This document shows, one piece after another, positions 3,108 through 29,756 of a DNA stretch of 64,000 nucleotides. A model generated the notes under the pieces. It made no database searches and had not been told where the DNA came from. It saw nothing but the letters and a program-made list of their open reading frames with translations. Location of the stretch: NCBI GenBank assembly GCA_041576165.1, contig JBFGLM010000001.1, forward strand, positions 96,001-160,000, in the 5' to 3' direction. The stretch comes from Acidimicrobiia bacterium. Lineage in GTDB: Bacteria > Actinomycetota > Acidimicrobiia > Spongiisociales > Spongiisociaceae. Each line of letters begins with the position of its first letter. Position 1 is the stretch's first letter. A program made the position numbers and the translations under genes.

Positions 3108-3776
3108 ATGGATCATGTCGTCGCCTACCGGCAGAGCCGAGAACGCCTGACCGACCTGGCCGCCGACCTCTCGGGGGAGAACCGAGCAGCCATCGTCCCG
3201 GCATCACCGGCGTGGACCGTGAAGGACACCTACGCCCACGTGGTCGGCGCGGCAGCCGATGTCGTGCATGGGCGCCTGGACGGCGCCGGCGGCGACGCAT
3301 GGACCGCAGCCCAGGTCGAAGCCCGGGCCACCCACGGTTTGGAGCAAATCCTCGAGGAGTGGGACGGGATAGGACCCCGGTTCGAAGCGAGCCTGGCGGC
3401 CGCGCCCGATGCGCTCTGGCGATTCGTCAGCGGGACCTGGCTCCACGAACAAGACATCCGAGGGGCGATTGGGTTGCGCGGACTGCGCGACACCGAGGGC
3501 GGCGCGGTGGCCCTTCGCTTGGTCGATGCAGTCGCCGACCGGGTGGACAGCGCCGGACTCACGGCGCTGCAGGTGGAGGCCGGCGATCACCGTTGGGTCC
3601 TCGGCCCAGGTGAACCGGCCGTTGTGCTGACGAGCGATCCGTACGAACTCGCCCGGGCGGTGGGTGGACGCCGCAGCCTCCGCCAGATGGCCGCTATGGA
3701 GTGGCAGGGGGATTTCGAGCCGTACATGCCGCTCCTTCCCTCTTACGGACCGACCGCGGTCGACCTGACCGACTGA
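3108..3776 (+). CDS. Mycothiol-dependent maleylpyruvate isomerase family (MDMPI/DinB-like) protein
   Basis: VPASPAWTVKDTYAH and WLHEQDIRGA metal-binding motifs. Confidence 0.85.
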   Translation: MDHVVAYRQSRERLTDLAADLSGENRAAIVPASPAWTVKDTYAHVVGAAADVVHGRLDGAGGDAWTAAQVEARATHGLEQILEEWDGIGPRFEASLAAAPDALWRFVSGTWLHEQDIRGAIGLRGLRDTEGGAVALRLVDAVADRVDSAGLTALQVEAGDHRWVLGPGEPAVVLTSDPYELARAVGGRRSLRQMAAMEWQGDFEPYMPLLPSYGPTAVDLTD

Positions 3777-3939
3777 CGGCCCGGCGCTCATGGCGAGTGG
3801 CCGCGGACCCGGCGGTCAGAGCAAGCCAATCATCGAGCGGCCGCCGCGCTCGTTGGTGGGGAGCGCGCCCACGGTGCCTCCTACCACCCGTACCTGCCGA
3901 CCATTGCTCTTCGCCCCACAAACGCCATACTGCCTGCCC

Positions 3940-4320
3940 ATGTTCGACGGGCAGATAACCTTCATCTACGTAGCCGATCTCGAGCGGTCACACGATTTCT
4001 ATCGCGCCACGCTCGGTCTCAGCCTGGTGCTCGACCAGGGCCGGTGCCGGGTCTACCGGGCAGCCACAGCCGCCTACATCGGGATATGCGACACGCGGCC
4101 TCCTGTGGCGTCGAGTTCGCTGATCCTGACGCTCGTCACCGATGACGTGGACGGTGTGCACACCCGGTTGGTCGACGCCGGTGCTCCTATCGACGTCGCT
4201 CCCCGATCCAACCCCGAGTTTGGGATCTACCAACTGTTCACCCGCGATCCCGACGGCTACGTGGTCGAGGTGCAGCGCTTCGACGATCCATCGTGGGCGA
4301 GCAGTGACGAGAGCATTTGA
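3940..4320 (+). CDS. VOC/glyoxalase family protein
   Basis: ITFIYVADLERSHDFY...LGL and FTRDPDGYVVEVQ. Start reassigned to ATG 3940. Confidence 0.85.
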   Translation: MFDGQITFIYVADLERSHDFYRATLGLSLVLDQGRCRVYRAATAAYIGICDTRPPVASSSLILTLVTDDVDGVHTRLVDAGAPIDVAPRSNPEFGIYQLFTRDPDGYVVEVQRFDDPSWASSDESI

Positions 4321-16301: not shown

Positions 16302-18332
16302 ATGCATCCACCCCAACCCAAGAAGGTCCGGACCATCCGCTCGTTGCACGGTGAAGATTTCGTTGACGACTACAGCTGGTTGCGAGACCGCAACGACCCG
16401 GACACCATCGCATACCTCGCTGCCGAGAACGAGTACACAGAGAGGGCCACCGCTCACCTCGAGGATCTTCGCACCCAAATCTTCGCAGAGATCAAGACCC
16501 GCACTCAGGAAACCGATCTGTCCGCCCCCGCCAAACGCGGCGAATACTGGTATGCCTCCCGCACCGAGGAGGGCAAGCAGTACCCAACGCACGTGCGGAT
16601 GCGGGCCGAACCAGACGGTCCCGAAGAAGTTCTGCTCGACGTCAACGCGCTGGCTGCCGACCACGAATACCTGCGGGTCGGGGTCTTCAGCGTCTCCCCC
16701 GACGGGCAGATGCTCGCCTACTCGACCGACACCGATGGCAGCGAGAAATATACGATGCGGATCAGAGACCTCGCCGGCGGCGCCGATCTGGACGATGTCC
16801 TGGAGAACACGTACTACAGCGCGGCGTGGTCCGCTGATGGCCGCCACCTCTTCTACACGACCATCGACGCCGCGCACCGGCCGGACAAGATCTGGCGCCA
16901 CGCCCTCGGCACCGCGCAGTCGGAAGACGAACTCGTGCTGCATGAGCCGGATGACCGCATGTTCATTCACGTGACGACGAGCCAGGACGAGCAATATGTG
17001 ATCGCAGCCGCCGGCAGCCAGACGACGGCCGACGCCCGTTACATTCCCGCAGACCAACCAACGGCCGAGTGGCAATGGGTCCTCCCGCGGGAGCATGGCG
17101 TCGAATACCAGGCAGACCACAGAGAGGGGCGCTGGCTGGTGGTCACGAACGACGATGCGGTCAACGGCCGGCTTCTGTCCGTGTCGGTCGGCGACCCCGC
17201 CGACGTGATCGAGGTCATCCCGCACGACCCGGCCCGCAAGCTCAGCGGAGTAGTGGCCTTCTCCCAGCATGTCATCGTCTTCGGGCGCGGCGCCGGGCTC
17301 ACCGCAGTCACAATCCTCGCCGACGGCACCGATCCCCACGACCTCGACTTCGATGAACCGGTGTACACGGTCGGCCCTGAACGCAACCTCGAGTACGACA
17401 CAACAACCTTGCGGATCCACTACCAGTCGCTCGTGACGCCTCGCCGCATCATCGACGTGGACCTCACGACCGGCGAGCGGCGGGTCGTGAAGGAGACGCC
17501 CGTGCTCGGCGGTTTCCACTCGTCCGACTACACGTCGTCGCGTGACTGGGCGACGGCCGCCGACGGGACCCGGATCCCGATCTCCATCGTCCACCGCGCC
17601 GATCTGGACCGAACCCGGCCGGTTCCGGTATTGCTCTATGGCTACGGGTCGTACGAGATCCCGGTCGATCCCACCTTCTCGATCCCCCGCCTGTCGATCC
17701 TGGATCGGGGCGTCATGTTCGCGATCGCTCACATCCGGGGTGGAGGCGAGATGGGAAAGCCCTGGTACGAGTCCGGCAAGATGACCAACAAGGCGAACAC
17801 CTTCGAGGACTTCATCGCTTGTGCCCGCCATCTGATCGACACCGGCGTCACCACACCTGAACTGCTGGTTGCGCGAGGCGGATCAGCCGGCGGCTTGCTG
17901 ATCGGTGCCGTCGCCAACATGGCGCCGGAGCTGTTCAAGGCCTTGATGGCCCAGGTCCCGTTCGTCGACGTCGTCAACACCATGTTGGACGAGACCCTGC
18001 CGCTGACGGTGATCGAGTGGGAGGAATGGGGCAACCCCAAGATCGAGGAGCAGTACCGGTGGATCCGGGAGTACTCGCCCTACGACAACGTGGATGGCCG
18101 CGAGTACCCTGCGATGCTCGTCACCGCCGGGCTCAACGACCCGCGGGTCAGCTACTGGGAACCCGCCAAATGGGTCGCCAAACTGCGTGAAGTCGGCACC
18201 ACACGCGGACCGCTCCTCTTGAAGACCGAGATGGGAGCAGGCCATGCGGGACCCTCCGGCCGCTACGACGCTTGGAAGGACGAAGCGTTCGATCTGGCCT
18301 TCATGCTGGACCAGGTTGGGCTGGCGGGCTGA
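16302..18332 (+). CDS. ptrB: Oligopeptidase B (S9A prolyl oligopeptidase family)
   Basis: DDYSWLRD, YGYGSY, HIRGGGEMG, GGSAGG nucleophile, VPFVD, DPRVSYWEPAKWVAKLR, GAGH. Confidence 0.92.
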   Translation: MHPPQPKKVRTIRSLHGEDFVDDYSWLRDRNDPDTIAYLAAENEYTERATAHLEDLRTQIFAEIKTRTQETDLSAPAKRGEYWYASRTEEGKQYPTHVRMRAEPDGPEEVLLDVNALAADHEYLRVGVFSVSPDGQMLAYSTDTDGSEKYTMRIRDLAGGADLDDVLENTYYSAAWSADGRHLFYTTIDAAHRPDKIWRHALGTAQSEDELVLHEPDDRMFIHVTTSQDEQYVIAAAGSQTTADARYIPADQPTAEWQWVLPREHGVEYQADHREGRWLVVTNDDAVNGRLLSVSVGDPADVIEVIPHDPARKLSGVVAFSQHVIVFGRGAGLTAVTILADGTDPHDLDFDEPVYTVGPERNLEYDTTTLRIHYQSLVTPRRIIDVDLTTGERRVVKETPVLGGFHSSDYTSSRDWATAADGTRIPISIVHRADLDRTRPVPVLLYGYGSYEIPVDPTFSIPRLSILDRGVMFAIAHIRGGGEMGKPWYESGKMTNKANTFEDFIACARHLIDTGVTTPELLVARGGSAGGLLIGAVANMAPELFKALMAQVPFVDVVNTMLDETLPLTVIEWEEWGNPKIEEQYRWIREYSPYDNVDGREYPAMLVTAGLNDPRVSYWEPAKWVAKLREVGTTRGPLLLKTEMGAGHAGPSGRYDAWKDEAFDLAFMLDQVGLAG

Positions 18333-18357
18333 GCCGGCTCCCCCGGCCCCCGGCCGA

Positions 18358-19938
18358 TCAGCGAATGCCGACCGGCCGCCATCCTGGGTCGAATGTGGCC
18401 CCCCAGCTGTCGGACAAGCGTTGCTCTGCGAGCTGGCTCCAAGCCTGCAATGCACAGAACGGAGCACATTGCGGAGTGTCGCCGTTGCGGGTGCCCACGT
18501 GCACGCAACATTGCATCAGGCGCTCCTCGATCATGTTTGACATGTCCATGAACGGCTTGACCGTGAGCCGCACGATCCGCTCGGCCATCAGTGTTCGCAG
18601 CCGTTTGGCGCCGCCTCCCACCACCGCCCGACCGGCCATTCGCAACATGGCGGGTATTCCGAGGTCGCACGTGCGGCACACGATCTCGAACAGGTCTCCG
18701 ATCGTGGGGTGGGAGAGCGACTGTTGCTCCGACAGCAACCCGAGCAGGGAGACTCGGACCGAATCGCGCAGGTCGTTCATGATGTCGGAAGACGCGATGG
18801 TATTGGACACGAGTCCCAGGTGTTCGCGGAGGCGGTCATGGCCGATTGCGCGTACCAGCGACCGCCACGACCCATCGTCCTGTCTGATCATGTAGCCGAT
18901 AGAGCAGCAATGAGGGTGCGAGCAGGGCAGGGCGGTGAGGTCCTCCCACGTCACCACCCCGGCTGTCTGCGGTCCCAGCCGCCGCAACACGCCGCCATGG
19001 GTCAGGCGATCGCGGCGATCAATCGGTCCTGAGCGTCCTGAACCAAACTGCGGCTGGATCGACACCCCGCCGACGAAGGGAGTGTCGAGGGCGAGGCTCA
19101 CGACGGCGCCGATCTCGTCGTCGTTGACATCTTTTGCTGCCGTCATCGTGAGGGTCGTGAAGACACCGGCTTCGCTGAGCCGTGCTACCGCTCGCAGCTT
19201 CATTGCGCTGAGATCGGCACCCCGATGATGGCGGTACGTGGCCGAGCGGAGGCCGTCGAACTGGAGGTAGACCTCGACCCGGTCCCGTCGCGCTTCGAGC
19301 GCAGCGATCAATGAGTCGTCACGTGCCACCGCCACACCGTTGGTGTTGACCAGGATGCGGGTGATGGGACGAGCGGACAGCTCGTCGAGGATGGAGACGA
19401 AATCGGGGTGGAGCGTCGGCTCGCCGCCCGAGAGCATCACCACATCGAGATGATCCCCCTCACGCCCGAGGCGCTGGTCCACGTTGGCCAGCACCTCGCC
19501 CGGCGGGACGACACCGCCGGCATGGGGAGCGGAACCGGCGAAACACGTGGGGCAGCGCAGGTTGCACTCACTGATGATGTCCTCGAGCAGGATGCAGGTG
19601 TGCTGGGTCTGCAGCTCGCCCAGACCCTGCCGGTAGGCCAGGGGGATCTGGTCGTAGTTGCCGGGCGTGTCGGGCACATGCAGTTTGGTAGGGGCGGTCC
19701 AGGTCTCCAGATATCTCAAGATCTGCGGATCCTCGTCGTAGAGGGTTTCCACCCGTCCGTGTTCACGACACCCCCGCACCAGCCATACGCGATCGTCGCG
19801 AACCGACAGGTAACCTGACAACCGCTCGACCAGCTCCAGCGGCCGGTCCGGCCACTGGTCGTGGCAATCGGGGCAAAACGCAACGACGTAGCGGTGGATG
19901 AAATCGCCTCGGAGCGGCATCCCTCGGGCCACCGTCAT
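18358..19938 (-). CDS. Radical SAM protein with tetraether-synthase (Tes/MJ0619)-like motif layout
   Basis: N-terminal CPDC...CREHG, HTC before CNLRCPTC, SGGEPTLHP, YLQFDG, PCSHPHCC, C-terminal QCCVH...PFC. ATG 19938 overlaps the upstream stop (ATGA). Confidence 0.85.
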   Translation of the reverse strand: MTVARGMPLRGDFIHRYVVAFCPDCHDQWPDRPLELVERLSGYLSVRDDRVWLVRGCREHGRVETLYDEDPQILRYLETWTAPTKLHVPDTPGNYDQIPLAYRQGLGELQTQHTCILLEDIISECNLRCPTCFAGSAPHAGGVVPPGEVLANVDQRLGREGDHLDVVMLSGGEPTLHPDFVSILDELSARPITRILVNTNGVAVARDDSLIAALEARRDRVEVYLQFDGLRSATYRHHRGADLSAMKLRAVARLSEAGVFTTLTMTAAKDVNDDEIGAVVSLALDTPFVGGVSIQPQFGSGRSGPIDRRDRLTHGGVLRRLGPQTAGVVTWEDLTALPCSHPHCCSIGYMIRQDDGSWRSLVRAIGHDRLREHLGLVSNTIASSDIMNDLRDSVRVSLLGLLSEQQSLSHPTIGDLFEIVCRTCDLGIPAMLRMAGRAVVGGGAKRLRTLMAERIVRLTVKPFMDMSNMIEERLMQCCVHVGTRNGDTPQCAPFCALQAWSQLAEQRLSDSWGATFDPGWRPVGIR

Positions 19939-20294
19939 GCTCCCGAGAGCGAGGCGACGATCAGCGCCACGCATGTGCCGATCAGCACCAGCAGCACCCC
20001 GAGGCCGAGGAAGAAGCCGGTGAGGAACCTGCCCTGGGCCCGGCGGTAACCCCAAATGGGAATCAGAACGAACAGCGCCAGCGTCACCAGCCCGCCCAGG
20101 GAGGCCGCGCCCCGGGTGGCGCCATCGCTGCCGGTGGCGTTGGCAAGACCGGCGAGGAGGCCGCTGATGAGTGCCCCCCCGAACACCGCAACGAGGAACC
20201 CCAAAAACCCGGCCGTCTTCGGGTAGCGGGTTACGAAGGATCCGCCGCGGCCGTCGGGACGGCCGGGTCCCGCCGGTGGTGGCTGGTTGGTCAC
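19935..20294 (-). CDS. Small membrane protein (119 aa, about 3 TM) with a single Cys in a C-terminal LIGTC motif
   Basis: 3' part of track ORF 19935..20942. GTG 20294 overlaps the Lgt stop (GTGA), and its TGA overlaps the rSAM ATG. Confidence 0.8.
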   Translation of the reverse strand: MTNQPPPAGPGRPDGRGGSFVTRYPKTAGFLGFLVAVFGGALISGLLAGLANATGSDGATRGAASLGGLVTLALFVLIPIWGYRRAQGRFLTGFFLGLGVLLVLIGTCVALIVASLSGA

Positions 20295-21076
20295 GCGATC
20301 CCCGGGACAGCTCGGCCGCGGCGGATCAGGCGCCATGTGATCGATACAACCACCACTGCGAATCCGGTCAGGAGGAACAGCTGGGATCCAGACATGCCGA
20401 ACCAGAGGGCCGGGTTGCCCCGGACGAATTCCAGCGCGAAGCGGGCGATGGCATAAGCGCCTACATACATGGGGAAGAGCCGTCCGGCGAAACGGGCGTC
20501 GTCCCGGACTCGCAACAGGAGCACCAGGGCCAGGACGTGGAACCCAATCTCGTAGAGAAACGAGGGATGCATCGGCAGCCCGAGCCGGCACTGGGGGCAG
20601 AACGGCATCTGCATGGCCTGCTCCGCGCTCACGGCCAGCCCCCAAGGAAGAGAGGTCGTGGTCCCGATCTGCTCGGTGAGGAAACACCCGATCCGGCCGA
20701 TCGCCATACCGAGGGCCACCGCCGGAGCGAAGAAGTCGCCGGTCGAACCACGATATCCGATCAGCTTCTTCGCCACGATCGCCCCTACGTACGCGCCGAC
20801 CAGGCCACCGAGAATGGACCGGCCGGCATGGGTGAAGAGCCCGGTGACAGTCGGTTCGGTCCCTTCGGCCAGGTACCGAATGCCGGTGCCCACCCGGGCG
20901 AACAACCCGCCCCCGACCAGCGCACCGGCCACCACCGTCCATAGTTCATCGCTCCACCGGCCCCGCCGGCGGGCCTCTAGCACGAACACCACACCCGCGG
21001 CGAGGACCCCGACCCCGATGAAGAACTCGTGGGTCGGGATGCTCAGCCCTCCCACCGTGAAGAGGACGGGGACCAT
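20291..21076 (-). CDS. Prolipoprotein diacylglyceryl transferase (Lgt) family protein, rSAM-associated paralog
   Basis: MVPVLFTVG, GRSILGGLVG, DFFAPAVALGMAIGRIGCFL, TSLPWG, HPSFLYE, RFALEFVR. Confidence 0.88.
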   Translation of the reverse strand: MVPVLFTVGGLSIPTHEFFIGVGVLAAGVVFVLEARRRGRWSDELWTVVAGALVGGGLFARVGTGIRYLAEGTEPTVTGLFTHAGRSILGGLVGAYVGAIVAKKLIGYRGSTGDFFAPAVALGMAIGRIGCFLTEQIGTTTSLPWGLAVSAEQAMQMPFCPQCRLGLPMHPSFLYEIGFHVLALVLLLRVRDDARFAGRLFPMYVGAYAIARFALEFVRGNPALWFGMSGSQLFLLTGFAVVVVSITWRLIRRGRAVPGIA

Positions 21077-21135
21077 GGGTTCACGCTAGCTGCGAACACG
21101 CCGGCGCGACCGGCGAGACCCTCACGAAGTTGGCT

Positions 21136-21807
21136 TCAGTCGCGGGCAAGCAGCTGGTCTGCCACTGCGTCCAGGTCGGGCGCGACGATATCGGGACGTT
21201 CGCTGACGGCGGTGAGATACATACCCGGGCGGGCGACGAACGCTCCCAACGCGCCGGCCCGCATTGCGCCGGTAACGTCCCAGTCGTGCGCGGCGATCAT
21301 GCGCAGCTCGCCGATCGGCCGACCCAGCCGCTCGGCCACGGCTCGATACGTCGCAGGGGCGGGCTTGAAAGCTTCCACCATCTCGACGGAGAACGTCTCA
21401 TCGAAGAGGTCGGCCAGGCCGGCGTTGGCCATCTGGTCAGCCACCATCGACCCGCTGGAGTTGGTGAGCGTGACCATCGCAAAGCCGGCGGATCGTATCC
21501 GTTCCAGGGCAGCCCGCACCTCCGGGTGCGGTGGCAGGGCGCGCATGCCGGCCACCACCTCCTGAGCAACTTCTTCGCCGAGTTCGATCCCGGCTCGTCG
21601 GGTAACCAGCAGCAACGCGTCGGTCCCCAGCTCGTCGAACGGCCGGTAGGCGCCAGTGAGGGTCGCAACGAGCGAGTTGCGGAGCATTTGCCCGAACCAC
21701 ACCGGCAACAGATCAACCGTCCCGACTGTTTTTTCAAAGGACGGGCGCAGCGCTCGGAGGTCGAGCAAGGTTTCGTTGACATCGAAGACAAGAGTTTCTC
21801 GGATCAT
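21136..21807 (-). CDS. Haloacid dehalogenase type II
   Basis: FDVNETLLD, LTNS, FKPAP, AAHDWDVTGA. Start ATG 21807. Confidence 0.9.
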   Translation of the reverse strand: MIRETLVFDVNETLLDLRALRPSFEKTVGTVDLLPVWFGQMLRNSLVATLTGAYRPFDELGTDALLLVTRRAGIELGEEVAQEVVAGMRALPPHPEVRAALERIRSAGFAMVTLTNSSGSMVADQMANAGLADLFDETFSVEMVEAFKPAPATYRAVAERLGRPIGELRMIAAHDWDVTGAMRAGALGAFVARPGMYLTAVSERPDIVAPDLDAVADQLLARD

Positions 21808-21886
21808 CCGGGTTCTCCTTGCGGGTGGCTCCAGACGGTCGCTGGCCGCCCGGGCCACGATACGAGTAGCGTGCCGCCCACGAACC

Positions 21887-22624
21887 ATGCCCGATCTGAG
21901 CCTGTTTGTGAACGACCTGGGCGATCCCGTGCCCGCTCTGACCGCCGACGAAATGCGAGAAGTCGACCGCCTCGCCATCGAGGTACACGGGCCGAGTCTC
22001 CTTCAAATGATGGAGAACGCCGGCCGCAACCTCGCCCTGAGCGCACTCGAGCTGTTGGGCAATCGCTGGCGCGATGGGCAACTTCTCGTGCTGGCTGGGA
22101 CCGGCGGCAATGGCGGCGGCGGGATCGCCGCCGCCCGGCACCTGGCCAATCGTGGGGCCGACGTGGCGATCGTCGTGACGAACATCGACGGACTCGAGGA
22201 GGTGCCGACGCTGCAGCTGGACATCTTCAGAGGCACCGACGGCCGCACGCTGGGAGGGTCCGAGCTCGCCTCCACCGAACCAGCGCTGGTGATCGACGCC
22301 ATAATCGGGTATTCCCTGCGAGGATCTCCCCGAGGGGCCGCACTCGACATGATCGAATTCGTCAACGAAAGTTCGGCGCCGGTGGTGTCCCTCGACACGC
22401 CCTCCGGCCTGGATGTCACCTCCGGCACCTGTCCGGGCGCGGTCGTCACGGCCACCACGACGGTCACCCTCGCATTGCCCAAATGCGGTCTCACCGCGCC
22501 GCAGGCCGGCGACGTCGTATTGGCCGACATAGGGATCCCGCCGATCGTGTACAGGTCGCTCGGGCTGGAGTTCACATCGCCCGTTTTCGACCACCGCTAT
22601 CGAGTCCCGCTGGGCCGCGCATGA
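21887..22624 (+). CDS. nnrE: NAD(P)H-hydrate epimerase (stand-alone YjeF-N)
   Basis: MREVDR, MMENAG, GTGGNGGGG, IDAIIG, SLDTPSG, TVTLALPK, LADIGIP. Confidence 0.88.
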   Translation: MPDLSLFVNDLGDPVPALTADEMREVDRLAIEVHGPSLLQMMENAGRNLALSALELLGNRWRDGQLLVLAGTGGNGGGGIAAARHLANRGADVAIVVTNIDGLEEVPTLQLDIFRGTDGRTLGGSELASTEPALVIDAIIGYSLRGSPRGAALDMIEFVNESSAPVVSLDTPSGLDVTSGTCPGAVVTATTTVTLALPKCGLTAPQAGDVVLADIGIPPIVYRSLGLEFTSPVFDHRYRVPLGRA

Positions 22625-28865: not shown

Positions 28866-29756
28866 TCAGGTCGCGGCCGGATCTAGCGCGGCGCCGATCT
28901 CACGATCGTTGGCCTCGCTGACCACCGGCATCCTGCGGGCAAAGACCCGGAGCAGAATGAGGCCGCCGATCCCCGCCGCCAGCCCGCTCCATTGGCTCCA
29001 GGTGAACGGGCCGAGGGTCGCATCACCGTTGACGTCGAGCGACAGGCGGGCGAAGTCGATGACGAACCGCTGGAAGCCGTACCAGGTCACCCAGGTGGCA
29101 AACAGCTGGCCGTAATGCAGCGGGCGCCCGGACCGGTACAACCAGACGAGAAACACCAACAGCAGGGCTGCGCCCACCAGGTCGTACAACGCCGTGTGGT
29201 GGTAGACGCCGCACAGGCCGTCGGCCCCCGCAGTCGCACATTCCAGCGCATCGTGCTGAGGGGCGACGTCGTAGCCGGGTTTGATGCCGAAGCCGAGGAA
29301 GAACGTCGTTGGGCCGCCGAGGTGCTCGACGATGGCCAGGTCACCGATTCTCCCGACAACGGTACCGAGCGCCATGCCAAAAGAGGCCATGTCCGCGTAG
29401 GCGAGGAACGGAAGCTGCAGCCGGCGCAAACGCAGCCATCCCCCCAGAATGCCGCCGGCATAGCCGCCCAGTATGGAATACGAGCCGGCGGGGTTGAATG
29501 CGTCGCCCAATCCAAAACCAGGATCACCGAGGTGGGCGGGCACCGTCAGGAAACGGGCGCCCAGAATGGCACCAATCAGGGCCCACGTCAGTACCGAGGC
29601 AAACTTCTCTGCGTCGTAGCCCCGAGACCGGACATAGCGGGTGGCCAGCCATGCGCCGGCGAGAAAGCCCAGGGCAGCAAACACCCCGTGCAACGAGAGG
29701 CGGATCGGCCCCACCTCGAAGATGGGTATCGGAGGATATGAGATTGCGCCCAGCAC
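28866..29756 (-). CDS. Lgt family protein (second paralog)
   Basis: YPPIPIFEVGP..LSLHG, GAILGAR, SILGG, GRIGD, HHTALYD, RFVIDFAR. Start set at GTG 29756 (TAACCT 7 nt upstream). Confidence 0.85.
   Translation of the reverse strand: MLGAISYPPIPIFEVGPIRLSLHGVFAALGFLAGAWLATRYVRSRGYDAEKFASVLTWALIGAILGARFLTVPAHLGDPGFGLGDAFNPAGSYSILGGYAGGILGGWLRLRRLQLPFLAYADMASFGMALGTVVGRIGDLAIVEHLGGPTTFFLGFGIKPGYDVAPQHDALECATAGADGLCGVYHHTALYDLVGAALLLVFLVWLYRSGRPLHYGQLFATWVTWYGFQRFVIDFARLSLDVNGDATLGPFTWSQWSGLAAGIGGLILLRVFARRMPVVSEANDREIGAALDPAAT

Follow-up and report, generated by a model that had tools for sequence, protein, structure and literature searches.

The stretch of DNA analysed here, which we call the window, comprises 64,000 nucleotides (nt) of contig JBFGLM010000001.1 from the Acidimicrobiia bacterium assembly GCA_041576165.1. 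This report focuses on a compact operon on its minus strand, which encodes a homologue of the lipoprotein diacylglyceryl transferase Lgt, a small membrane protein that we name protein A, and a radical S-adenosylmethionine (SAM) enzyme. We find that it represents a conserved membrane module, so far undescribed, whose core consists of three parts, and we tentatively propose a role for it in an unusual form of protein lipidation. The three open reading frames (ORFs) follow each other in the order Lgt-like gene, protein A, radical SAM gene, and they are chained by overlaps between start and stop codons that can be read directly from the sequence. They are listed here, with lengths in amino acids (aa), together with a short element found upstream by direct reading.

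20291-21076, minus strand: Lgt-like ORF, 261 aa (P0001), with an LGT domain (PF01790, E = 3.8e-33).
19935-20294, minus strand: protein A ORF, 119 aa (P0002), GTG start; proline-rich N terminus, three predicted membrane helices and an invariant cysteine, Cys108.
18358-19938, minus strand: radical SAM ORF, 526 aa (P0003), ATG start; PF04055 and PF23545.
21083-21088, minus strand: TAGCGT hexamer, 6 nt 5' of the Lgt-like ATG at 21076.

The TGA stop codon of the Lgt-like gene is shared with the GTG start codon of protein A in the tetranucleotide GTGA at 20291-20294, and the ATG of the radical SAM gene is shared with the stop codon of protein A in ATGA at 19935-19938. A preliminary description of this DNA had reported these overlaps, the spacing of the hexamer and the three-gene arrangement, all of which are present in the sequence. 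Codon-position GC content fits coding in all three ORFs, with third-position values (GC3) of 0.79-0.83 and second-position values (GC2) of 0.47-0.57, the GC3 of protein A being 0.83. TAGCGT may be the -10 element of a leaderless transcript; a sigma-70 consensus scan of 18200-21300 returned no promoter match, including in the TAGCGT region, and the two terminator-like matches in that interval are both at shuffle level.

The first line of evidence for a module is the recurrence of this gene order in distant bacteria. When a single genome was scanned for each species, 324 relatives of the radical SAM enzyme were obtained, and the best 80 of these—together with the window locus, a locus on contig C68 of the same assembly, and two loci from relatives—form the set of 84 loci used throughout, in which locus L006 duplicates L040. 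An Lgt-like gene adjoins the radical SAM gene on the same strand in 78 of the 84 loci, upstream in 73 and downstream in 5, the latter being Agromyces records. Six loci have no adjoining Lgt-like gene: five of them have less than 300 nt of upstream sequence, and the sixth is L062, an Oscillochloridaceae record to which we return below. The start codon of protein A overlaps the Lgt stop codon by 4 nt in 38 of the 58 loci where an ORF of this kind lies between the two enzyme genes, and its own stop codon is overlapped by a start codon in 34 of the 58. With the order of the genes shared by 78 of the 84 loci and the 4-nt overlap by 38 of 58, the arrangement is far beyond chance. Among the best 80 of 324 relatives, carrier loci come from Actinomycetota, Acidimicrobiia, Chloroflexota, Gemmatimonadota, Acidobacteriota and Dormibacterota records. 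Species of Mycolicibacterium and Mycobacterium carry the cassette, and cultured carriers include Nocardia, Mycolicibacterium, Nonomuraea and Agromyces species.

Co-occurrence across whole genomes points the same way. In a phylum sample of 151 evenly drawn genomes, orthologues of the radical SAM enzyme (at least 55% identity) are found in five, namely the source assembly (G000) and four others, and the Lgt-like gene, at a minimum of 48% identity and E ≤ 1e-64, has exactly the same distribution, adjoining the radical SAM gene in each of the five. The other four cassette genomes of this sample each hold a distant second Lgt elsewhere. The distribution is patchy; among 40 relatives from the order an orthologue was present in 0 of 24 genomes of the same family and in 2 of 16 genomes of other families. 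Conserved linkage of Lgt, small protein and radical SAM enzyme had been put forward as a test of the system, and it is borne out across phyla. These results bear on the most ordinary explanation of the locus, which is that a redundant or decaying housekeeping Lgt happens to lie beside an unrelated radical SAM gene and that the small ORF is not a gene. Such a view would agree with the available text of the literature on Mycolicibacterium smegmatis, where a homologue with the same substitutions as the cassette enzyme is treated as a possibly redundant Lgt. We nevertheless consider it highly improbable in light of the adjacency across phyla, the perfect co-occurrence among the 151 genomes, the family-specific residues of the Lgt-like proteins, which are invariant columns in their alignment (A2), and, for the small ORF, an invariant cysteine and coding-type GC3.

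The source genome contains three LGT-domain genes: the cassette copy in the window and two others, one of which lies in a second cassette.

28866-29756 of the window, minus strand: "Lgt1", an Lgt homologue outside the cassette (PF01790, E = 1.4e-32).
G000 contig C68, 16499-18977 (locus L012, 561-3051): second, diverged cassette encoding a mini-A, an Lgt-like protein and a radical SAM enzyme, with overlapping stops and starts.

The C68 cassette shares 50% identity with that of the window in its Lgt-like protein and 60% in its radical SAM paralogue; the source assembly has 7.5% estimated contamination, and the C68 copy may stem from another organism. As for Lgt1, the preliminary description had noted this second homologue and reasoned that its presence could leave the cassette copy free for a dedicated role. 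The homologue is real, but it too departs from canonical Lgt: where Escherichia coli has Y26, H103 and N146 it has His, Leu and Asp, and its TIGR00544 score is 73.1 against a cut-off of 118.9. No gene in the source genome reaches the Lgt equivalog cut-off (TIGR00544), and a single LspA gene is present (G000:C2:139899-140309).

Protein A provides the second line of evidence. It has no family in Pfam or NCBIfam, and the protein Atlas yields only unnamed "hypothetical protein" clusters for it. Its Cys108 (codon 19971-19973) lies in the motif I-G-T-C, 11 residues from the C terminus. When ORFs in the gap between the Lgt-like and radical SAM genes were picked by position and length alone, which was possible in 58 loci, all proved to encode membrane proteins of two to four helices, mostly with proline-rich N termini, and all 58 have a cysteine in the last helix. 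In an alignment of 43 sequences (A1), with a mean column identity of only 18%, this cysteine is the sole invariant column (43/43); a glycine stands at -2 of it in at least 90% of that alignment and in 55 of 59 protein A sequences. Conservation of the small protein's cysteine, which had also been set as a test, is likewise borne out. Where the gap lacks A, an A-like ORF is found upstream of Lgt, after protein B (a further component described below) or, in Agromyces, after Lgt. An A or A-like ORF is thereby present in 80 of the 84 loci, two of the four exceptions having no sequence upstream. Since a G-x-C/hydrophobicity filter or a hidden Markov model (HMM) served to pick these additional A-like ORFs, their cysteine is present by construction; in a control on all 84 loci, the strict filter retrieved a candidate from the coding strand of 55 and from the opposite strand of only 1. 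In the source genome, an HMM of the A tail at E < 0.01 matches only the two cassette A genes, which amounts to one A per cassette. The mini-A of C68 is reduced to 39 aa, with a Shine-Dalgarno sequence, a charged N terminus, a single helix and the motif G-V-C, and its stop codon overlaps the Lgt ATG.

The distribution of charges in protein A suggests where its cysteine lies. The median number of Lys plus Arg residues is 3 before the last helix and 0 after the cysteine, a bias seen in 73 of 80 A proteins, and the tail after the cysteine has a median length of 10 residues (80 A proteins), and shows clade-level sequence conservation, as in the C-T-G-[LV]-N-P of the Nocardia and Mycobacterium records. 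By the positive-inside rule, the last helix would be oriented N-in/C-out and the cysteine would sit at the outer leaflet, an arrangement like that of signal peptides in lipoproteins. On this predicted topology, protein A has the features of such a peptide, that is, a charged n-region, a hydrophobic helix and a cysteine at its outer end.

The Lgt-like enzyme is a full-length LGT-domain protein, with residues 3-247 covering positions 1-239 of the 240 in the PF01790 profile, and it scores below every NCBIfam Lgt cut-off (73.5 against 118.9 bits for TIGR00544). Its residues were mapped to E. coli numbering by alignment to the Lgt structure 5AZB, with an assumed one-residue offset to the native numbering of the E. 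coli sequence. Equivalents of R143 (kept in 75 of 76 family members), Y235, R239, E243 and R246 (74 of 76 each) and of G104, G145 and G154 are retained. The Y26 position is occupied by His in 73 of the 76 members, the H103 position by Leu in 72, and the N146 position by Cys in 74 (Cys131 in the window protein, codon 20684-20686), while the E151 position is Gln or variable. The family consequently departs, by Y26H, H103L, N146C and Gln or variable residues for E151, from the 13-residue motif published for Lgt, Y26-H103-G104-G142-R143-G145-N146-E151-G154-Y235-R239-E243-R246 (bioRxiv 10.1101/2025.03.27.645668 / mBio 2026). The available portions of work on the E. coli enzyme list Y26, H103, R143, N146, G154 and R239 as essential, with Y26A and N146A failing to complement and H103Q not viable, and describe N146, in transmembrane helix 4, as hydrogen-bonding phosphatidylglycerol at entry while R143 and R239 position the phosphate. 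Since the cassette enzyme keeps the arginines, it probably still binds phospholipid, and since Y26, H103 and N146 are replaced, it might use a different donor or acceptor. A C-P-x-C pair at residues 160-163 (window 20594-20605 region), in a loop aligning to the periplasmic head domain of Lgt, may form a disulfide or metal site in part of the family; it was rejected as a family feature because only 56 of 76 members have it.

The cysteine at the N146 position allows a different view of the partnership between the two membrane proteins, in which the cysteine of protein A pairs with Cys131 to regulate or anchor the Lgt-like protein, the radical SAM enzyme having an unrelated substrate. An invariant or near-invariant cysteine in each protein, predicted at a similar outer-leaflet depth, is what one would expect of such a thiol or disulfide pair. 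However, pairing of this sort would leave unexplained both the strict co-occurrence of the radical SAM enzyme and the translational coupling of all three genes, and we judge it quite unlikely. A complex prediction for the Lgt-like protein (A2) and protein A (A1) gave a score of 0.17 (mark 0.32) and is not used either way.

The third core part, the radical SAM enzyme, combines a radical SAM core (PF04055) with an "HMPTM" zinc ribbon (PF23545). It had been labelled Tes-like, which is appropriate at the level of the superfamily but not of the curated family. Its best curated NCBIfam match is TrsS (NF045646, 198.7 against a cut-off of 490), with Tes scoring 150.9 against 450 (NF045702), and neither cut-off is reached. 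The reading frame of a distant radical SAM paralogue at G157:C52:1789-3138 (36% identity) is interrupted by a single TGA, which is what a selenoprotein of the TrsS type would be expected to show. Aligned to the structure of the lipid-tail coupling enzyme GDGT-MAS (PDB 7TOL), the window protein gives E = 3.7e-30. Its AlphaFold2 model (predicted local distance difference test score, 70; predicted template modelling score, 0.77) was matched full length by Foldseek to 7TOM and 7TOL, with template modelling scores of 0.60/0.63, at roughly 18-19% identity (566 columns and E = 4.9e-21 for 7TOM), and the next match, SkfB, reached 0.32 and covered the core only. The predicted structure is thus that of GDGT-MAS along its full length, with differences at the auxiliary metal sites, and the fact that a coupler of lipid tails is the sole full-length structural relative argues for a lipid-type enzyme. 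In the available text of Lloyd et al. 2022, GDGT-MAS is MJ0619, phospholipid tails are held in its hydrophobic tunnel, and the earlier annotation of that enzyme as a pterin methylase is called incorrect. The clade of the window enzyme is large, with at least 3424 clusters at E ≤ 1e-20, and its database names are limited to "radical SAM protein", entries beginning "uncharacterized radical SAM...", "pyruvate-formate lyase-activating enzyme" and this same pterin-methylase name.

Conservation of Cys and His residues, counted in 83 radical SAM sequences, is very high at several sites. The rubredoxin-like CX2C...CX2H site (C22, C25, C57, H60), the CX3CX2C radical SAM motif (C125, C129, C132) and the C-terminal residues C477, C478, H480, C491 and C495 are invariant in all 83. 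The same applies to C339, H341, C344 and C424, which form a family-specific set with H343 (82/83) and C421 (81/83); the residue of GDGT-MAS aligned with C339 is Ser. The C-terminal CC-H...PFC motif of GDGT-MAS is conserved (C477, C478, H480, C495), and its labile Met439 aligns to an invariant lysine, K461.

The radical SAM enzyme also bears on whether protein A could be the precursor of a lipopeptide, made in the manner of RiPPs (peptides that the ribosome synthesizes and that are then modified after translation). Its cysteine would be modified by the Lgt-like enzyme, the radical SAM enzyme or both, and a protease would then release a short C-terminal lipidated peptide or, by removing the helix, leave a tiny lipid-anchored one. 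A dedicated small precursor next to a radical SAM gene follows RiPP logic, and the short tail, with its median of 10 aa and clade-wise conservation, would suit a peptide product. Several observations argue otherwise: no SPASM/twitch, RiPP-recognition or RiPP-maturase family reaches its threshold with the radical SAM enzyme, whose matches to such families are weak, limited to the core and far under the cut-offs (E = 1e-7 to 1e-11); the cassette includes no conserved protease or transporter gene; and position -1 of the cysteine is rarely Gly, Ala or Ser, which makes LspA-type cleavage unlikely. A lipopeptide route therefore seems improbable to us.

Clustering of the ORFs in the neighbourhood revealed a fourth common component, which the three-part system of the preliminary description had missed. 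Protein B is a small membrane protein encoded directly after the radical SAM gene, with a core of about 80 aa that contains the motifs D-P-L-R-x-C and L-x-D-T-R-L-V and a second cysteine. Searching with an HMM made from 35 of its sequences places it in 66 of the 84 loci (for example, L043:6569-6874), with the first cysteine present in 66 of 66 sequences and the second in 65 of 66. It is absent from 14 loci that have sequence at this position, including the window, C68 and Mycobacterium/Mycolicibacterium records, and four loci have no sequence there. Neither one protein query nor the HMM run on a six-frame translation at E ≤ 10 found it in the source genome. Pfam and NCBIfam offer no family for it, and its clusters in the protein Atlas are unnamed. 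A fusion of the radical SAM enzyme with B, suspected from long open frames, was rejected because the radical SAM stop codon precedes B in every locus. In L062, two extra ORFs lie between the radical SAM gene and B (L062:6554-7449), one of them encoding a Cys/His-rich protein of 154 aa that we take to be nuclease-like, by eye and from its translation only; an A-like gene at 3752-4303 of the same locus precedes the radical SAM gene. ORF clusters present in at least 20 loci comprise only the radical SAM enzyme, Lgt, B and antisense artefacts. The window cassette is flanked by two further genes.

16302-18332, plus strand: S9 prolyl oligopeptidase, convergent with the cassette.
21136-21978, minus strand: HAD-family hydrolase, ending 60 nt upstream of the Lgt-like ATG.

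Both were rejected as members of the module, as neither matched any of the other 83 loci. Though probably outside the module, the hydrolase deserves mention as a phosphatase adjoining an enzyme expected to release glycerol phosphate.

The existence of protein B lends some weight to a pathway in which no protein is lipidated, and the Lgt-like and radical SAM enzymes act on membrane phospholipids only, for example by exchange or transfer of head groups together with cross-linking or methylation of chains. Proteins A and B would then be structural, assembly or redox subunits whose cysteines bind metal or relay thiols. The good conservation of B, including its two invariant cysteines, resembles that of a cofactor-binding or redox subunit, individual loci can miss A or B, residues essential to protein lipidation by Lgt are replaced, and the GDGT-MAS family, in the text available, acts on free lipids. 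Yet the extreme divergence of protein A, its single invariant cysteine and its 39-aa mini-form are more in keeping with a substrate or carrier than with a structural subunit, its 1:1 ratio to cassettes suits a dedicated partner, and its cysteine is predicted to lie as deep in the membrane as the catalytic cavity of Lgt and at a distance from the radical SAM enzyme in the cytoplasm. All considered, we view a pathway confined to free lipids as the leading alternative, possible if unlikely.

Returning to lipidation of protein A, our preferred reading, we propose the following sequence of events. The Lgt-like enzyme would take the glycerolipid part of a membrane phospholipid and attach it to the cysteine thiol of protein A at the depth of the outer leaflet, giving a lipid-protein thioether conjugate. 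The 5'-deoxyadenosyl radical of the cytoplasmic radical SAM enzyme would then take a hydrogen from an unactivated carbon in a lipid chain, either of the conjugate or of the donor lipid, and the enzyme would cross-link or otherwise modify the chain. One option, modelled on Tes, would be a macrocyclic or leaflet-bridging anchor. Protein A would be a carrier or anchor and not an enzyme. Topology, acceptor role, donor, radical SAM substrate and every chemical step are our suppositions, and we hold the proposal that the cysteine of A is lipidated and that the radical SAM enzyme modifies lipid chains only tentatively, at somewhat less than an even chance. The Tes-like outcome, in which radical chemistry couples the tails of S-lipidated A with one another or with a lipid from the other leaflet to yield a macrocyclic or membrane-spanning lipid held by a protein, appears unlikely. 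The system originally suggested, consisting of a dedicated Lgt, a dedicated Cys substrate and a lipid-type radical SAM enzyme, is reasonable as regards linkage, invariant cysteine, geometry and fold, but it has to accommodate lost Lgt residues, the lack of a lipobox and altered clusters.

Several observations weigh against lipidation of protein A followed by chain chemistry. First, Y26, H103 and N146 are all replaced in the Lgt-like enzyme, which may be no diacylglyceryl transferase, and the available text on MSMEG_5408, an Lgt homologue of M. smegmatis, speaks of "presumed low Lgt activity" (bioRxiv 10.1101/2025.03.27.645668 / mBio 2026). Second, the G-x-C motif of protein A is unlike the lipobox [LVI][ASTVI][GAS]C, with Gly, Ala or Ser at -1 in only 11 of 59 sequences. 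Third, the [Fe4S4]N cysteines of GDGT-MAS (C73, C77, C80) align to L100, Q104 and G107 in the radical SAM enzyme, and there is no conserved Cys in residues 61-114 of the 83 sequences. With this altered cluster set, which also includes a lysine for Met439 and extra Cys/His residues, the chemistry may differ from C-C coupling of tails. Fourth, a radical SAM enzyme must be cytoplasmic and the cysteine of A is probably at the outer leaflet, which would place the two steps on opposite faces of the membrane. Fifth, locus L062 has A, the radical SAM gene and B, with no Lgt-like gene within 5 kb. Finally, protein B, with its two invariant cysteines and its presence in 66 of 84 loci, is unexplained by the model.

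The module has several implications. Lgt is regarded as a single-purpose housekeeping enzyme and antibiotic target, and a conserved subfamily with Cys at Asn146, tied to a radical SAM enzyme and a one-Cys mini-protein, implies a second job for the Lgt fold. To our knowledge, inert lipid tails are coupled by no enzymes other than those of the Tes/GDGT-MAS family, whose relatives in bacteria have been sought as sources of branched tetraether biomarkers. Should the Tes-like outcome prove true, the module would represent a previously unseen form of protein lipidation, present in soil-dwelling aerobic bacteria that include relatives of Mycobacterium and Nocardia, would be the first link of bacterial lipoprotein machinery to archaeal-type tetraether chemistry, and would provide a function for the enigmatic N146C "second Lgt" of mycobacteria. 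The module is compact (three to four genes) and found in cultured species, and the model makes a sharp prediction, namely that a protein of 40-120 aa will carry a lipid adduct that depends on its cysteine.

We found no paper in the full-text literature linking an Lgt homologue with a Tes-like radical SAM enzyme or with such mini-proteins; supplements, which are outside that scope, may list clade members. Neither "Lgt" nor "lipoprotein" occurs anywhere in a 2026 review of lipid radical SAM enzymes, and the available part of the Tes paper discusses bacterial homologues only as candidates for branched glycerol dialkyl glycerol tetraethers (brGDGTs), with the Lgt-like gene unmentioned there.

Comparison with known systems highlights both similarities and differences. 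Like E. coli Lgt (5AZB/5AZC), the cassette enzyme has a full-length LGT domain with equivalents of R143, G154, Y235, R239, E243 and R246, and the candidate acceptor cysteine of A is placed, as in a signal peptide, at the outer end of a predicted N-in/C-out helix. Unlike E. coli Lgt, it has His for Y26, Leu for H103, Cys for N146 and a variable E151, falls below the TIGR00544 cut-off, and is linked to a radical SAM enzyme and to one dedicated G-x-C partner instead of a proteome of lipobox substrates. A closer counterpart is MSMEG_5408, the second Lgt of M. smegmatis, for which Y26H and N146C have been published (bioRxiv 10.1101/2025.03.27.645668 / mBio 2026). These substitutions are exactly those of the cassette family, and the window protein belongs, by its residues, to this MSMEG_5408-type subfamily. 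In print, in the text available, MSMEG_5408 is treated only as a low-activity or redundant Lgt. MSMEG_5406, which sits two genes from this N146C homologue, is listed in the available part of PMC7174638 as a hypothetical protein with an approximately 9-fold fall under zinc chelation.

On the radical SAM side, the cassette enzyme shares with GDGT-MAS/Tes, the synthase of tetraether lipids and macrocyclic archaeol in archaea (MJ0619, 7TOL/7TOM), the rubredoxin-like site, the CX3CX2C and CC-H...PFC motifs and, in its model, the full-length fold. It differs in having no [Fe4S4]N cysteines, a lysine for Met439 and the extra C339, H341, H343, C344 and C424, in being linked to an Lgt-like gene, and in its hosts, which are bacteria with ester lipids. 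TrsS (NF045646) is the best-scoring curated family for it at 198.7 bits, although the cut-off of 490 is far off, and TrsS itself is a table entry without a function in the available part of a review. As in radical SAM/RiPP systems, a dedicated small Cys protein is encoded beside the modifying enzymes; unlike in these systems, the cassette has no SPASM domain, protease or exporter. Lgt-like lipidation of a non-lipobox cysteine has been proposed for MYXO-CTERM proteins, in which, according to the text available, the cysteine precedes the helix, whereas that of protein A follows it. The parts of the module come from known superfamilies, and the system as such is undescribed.

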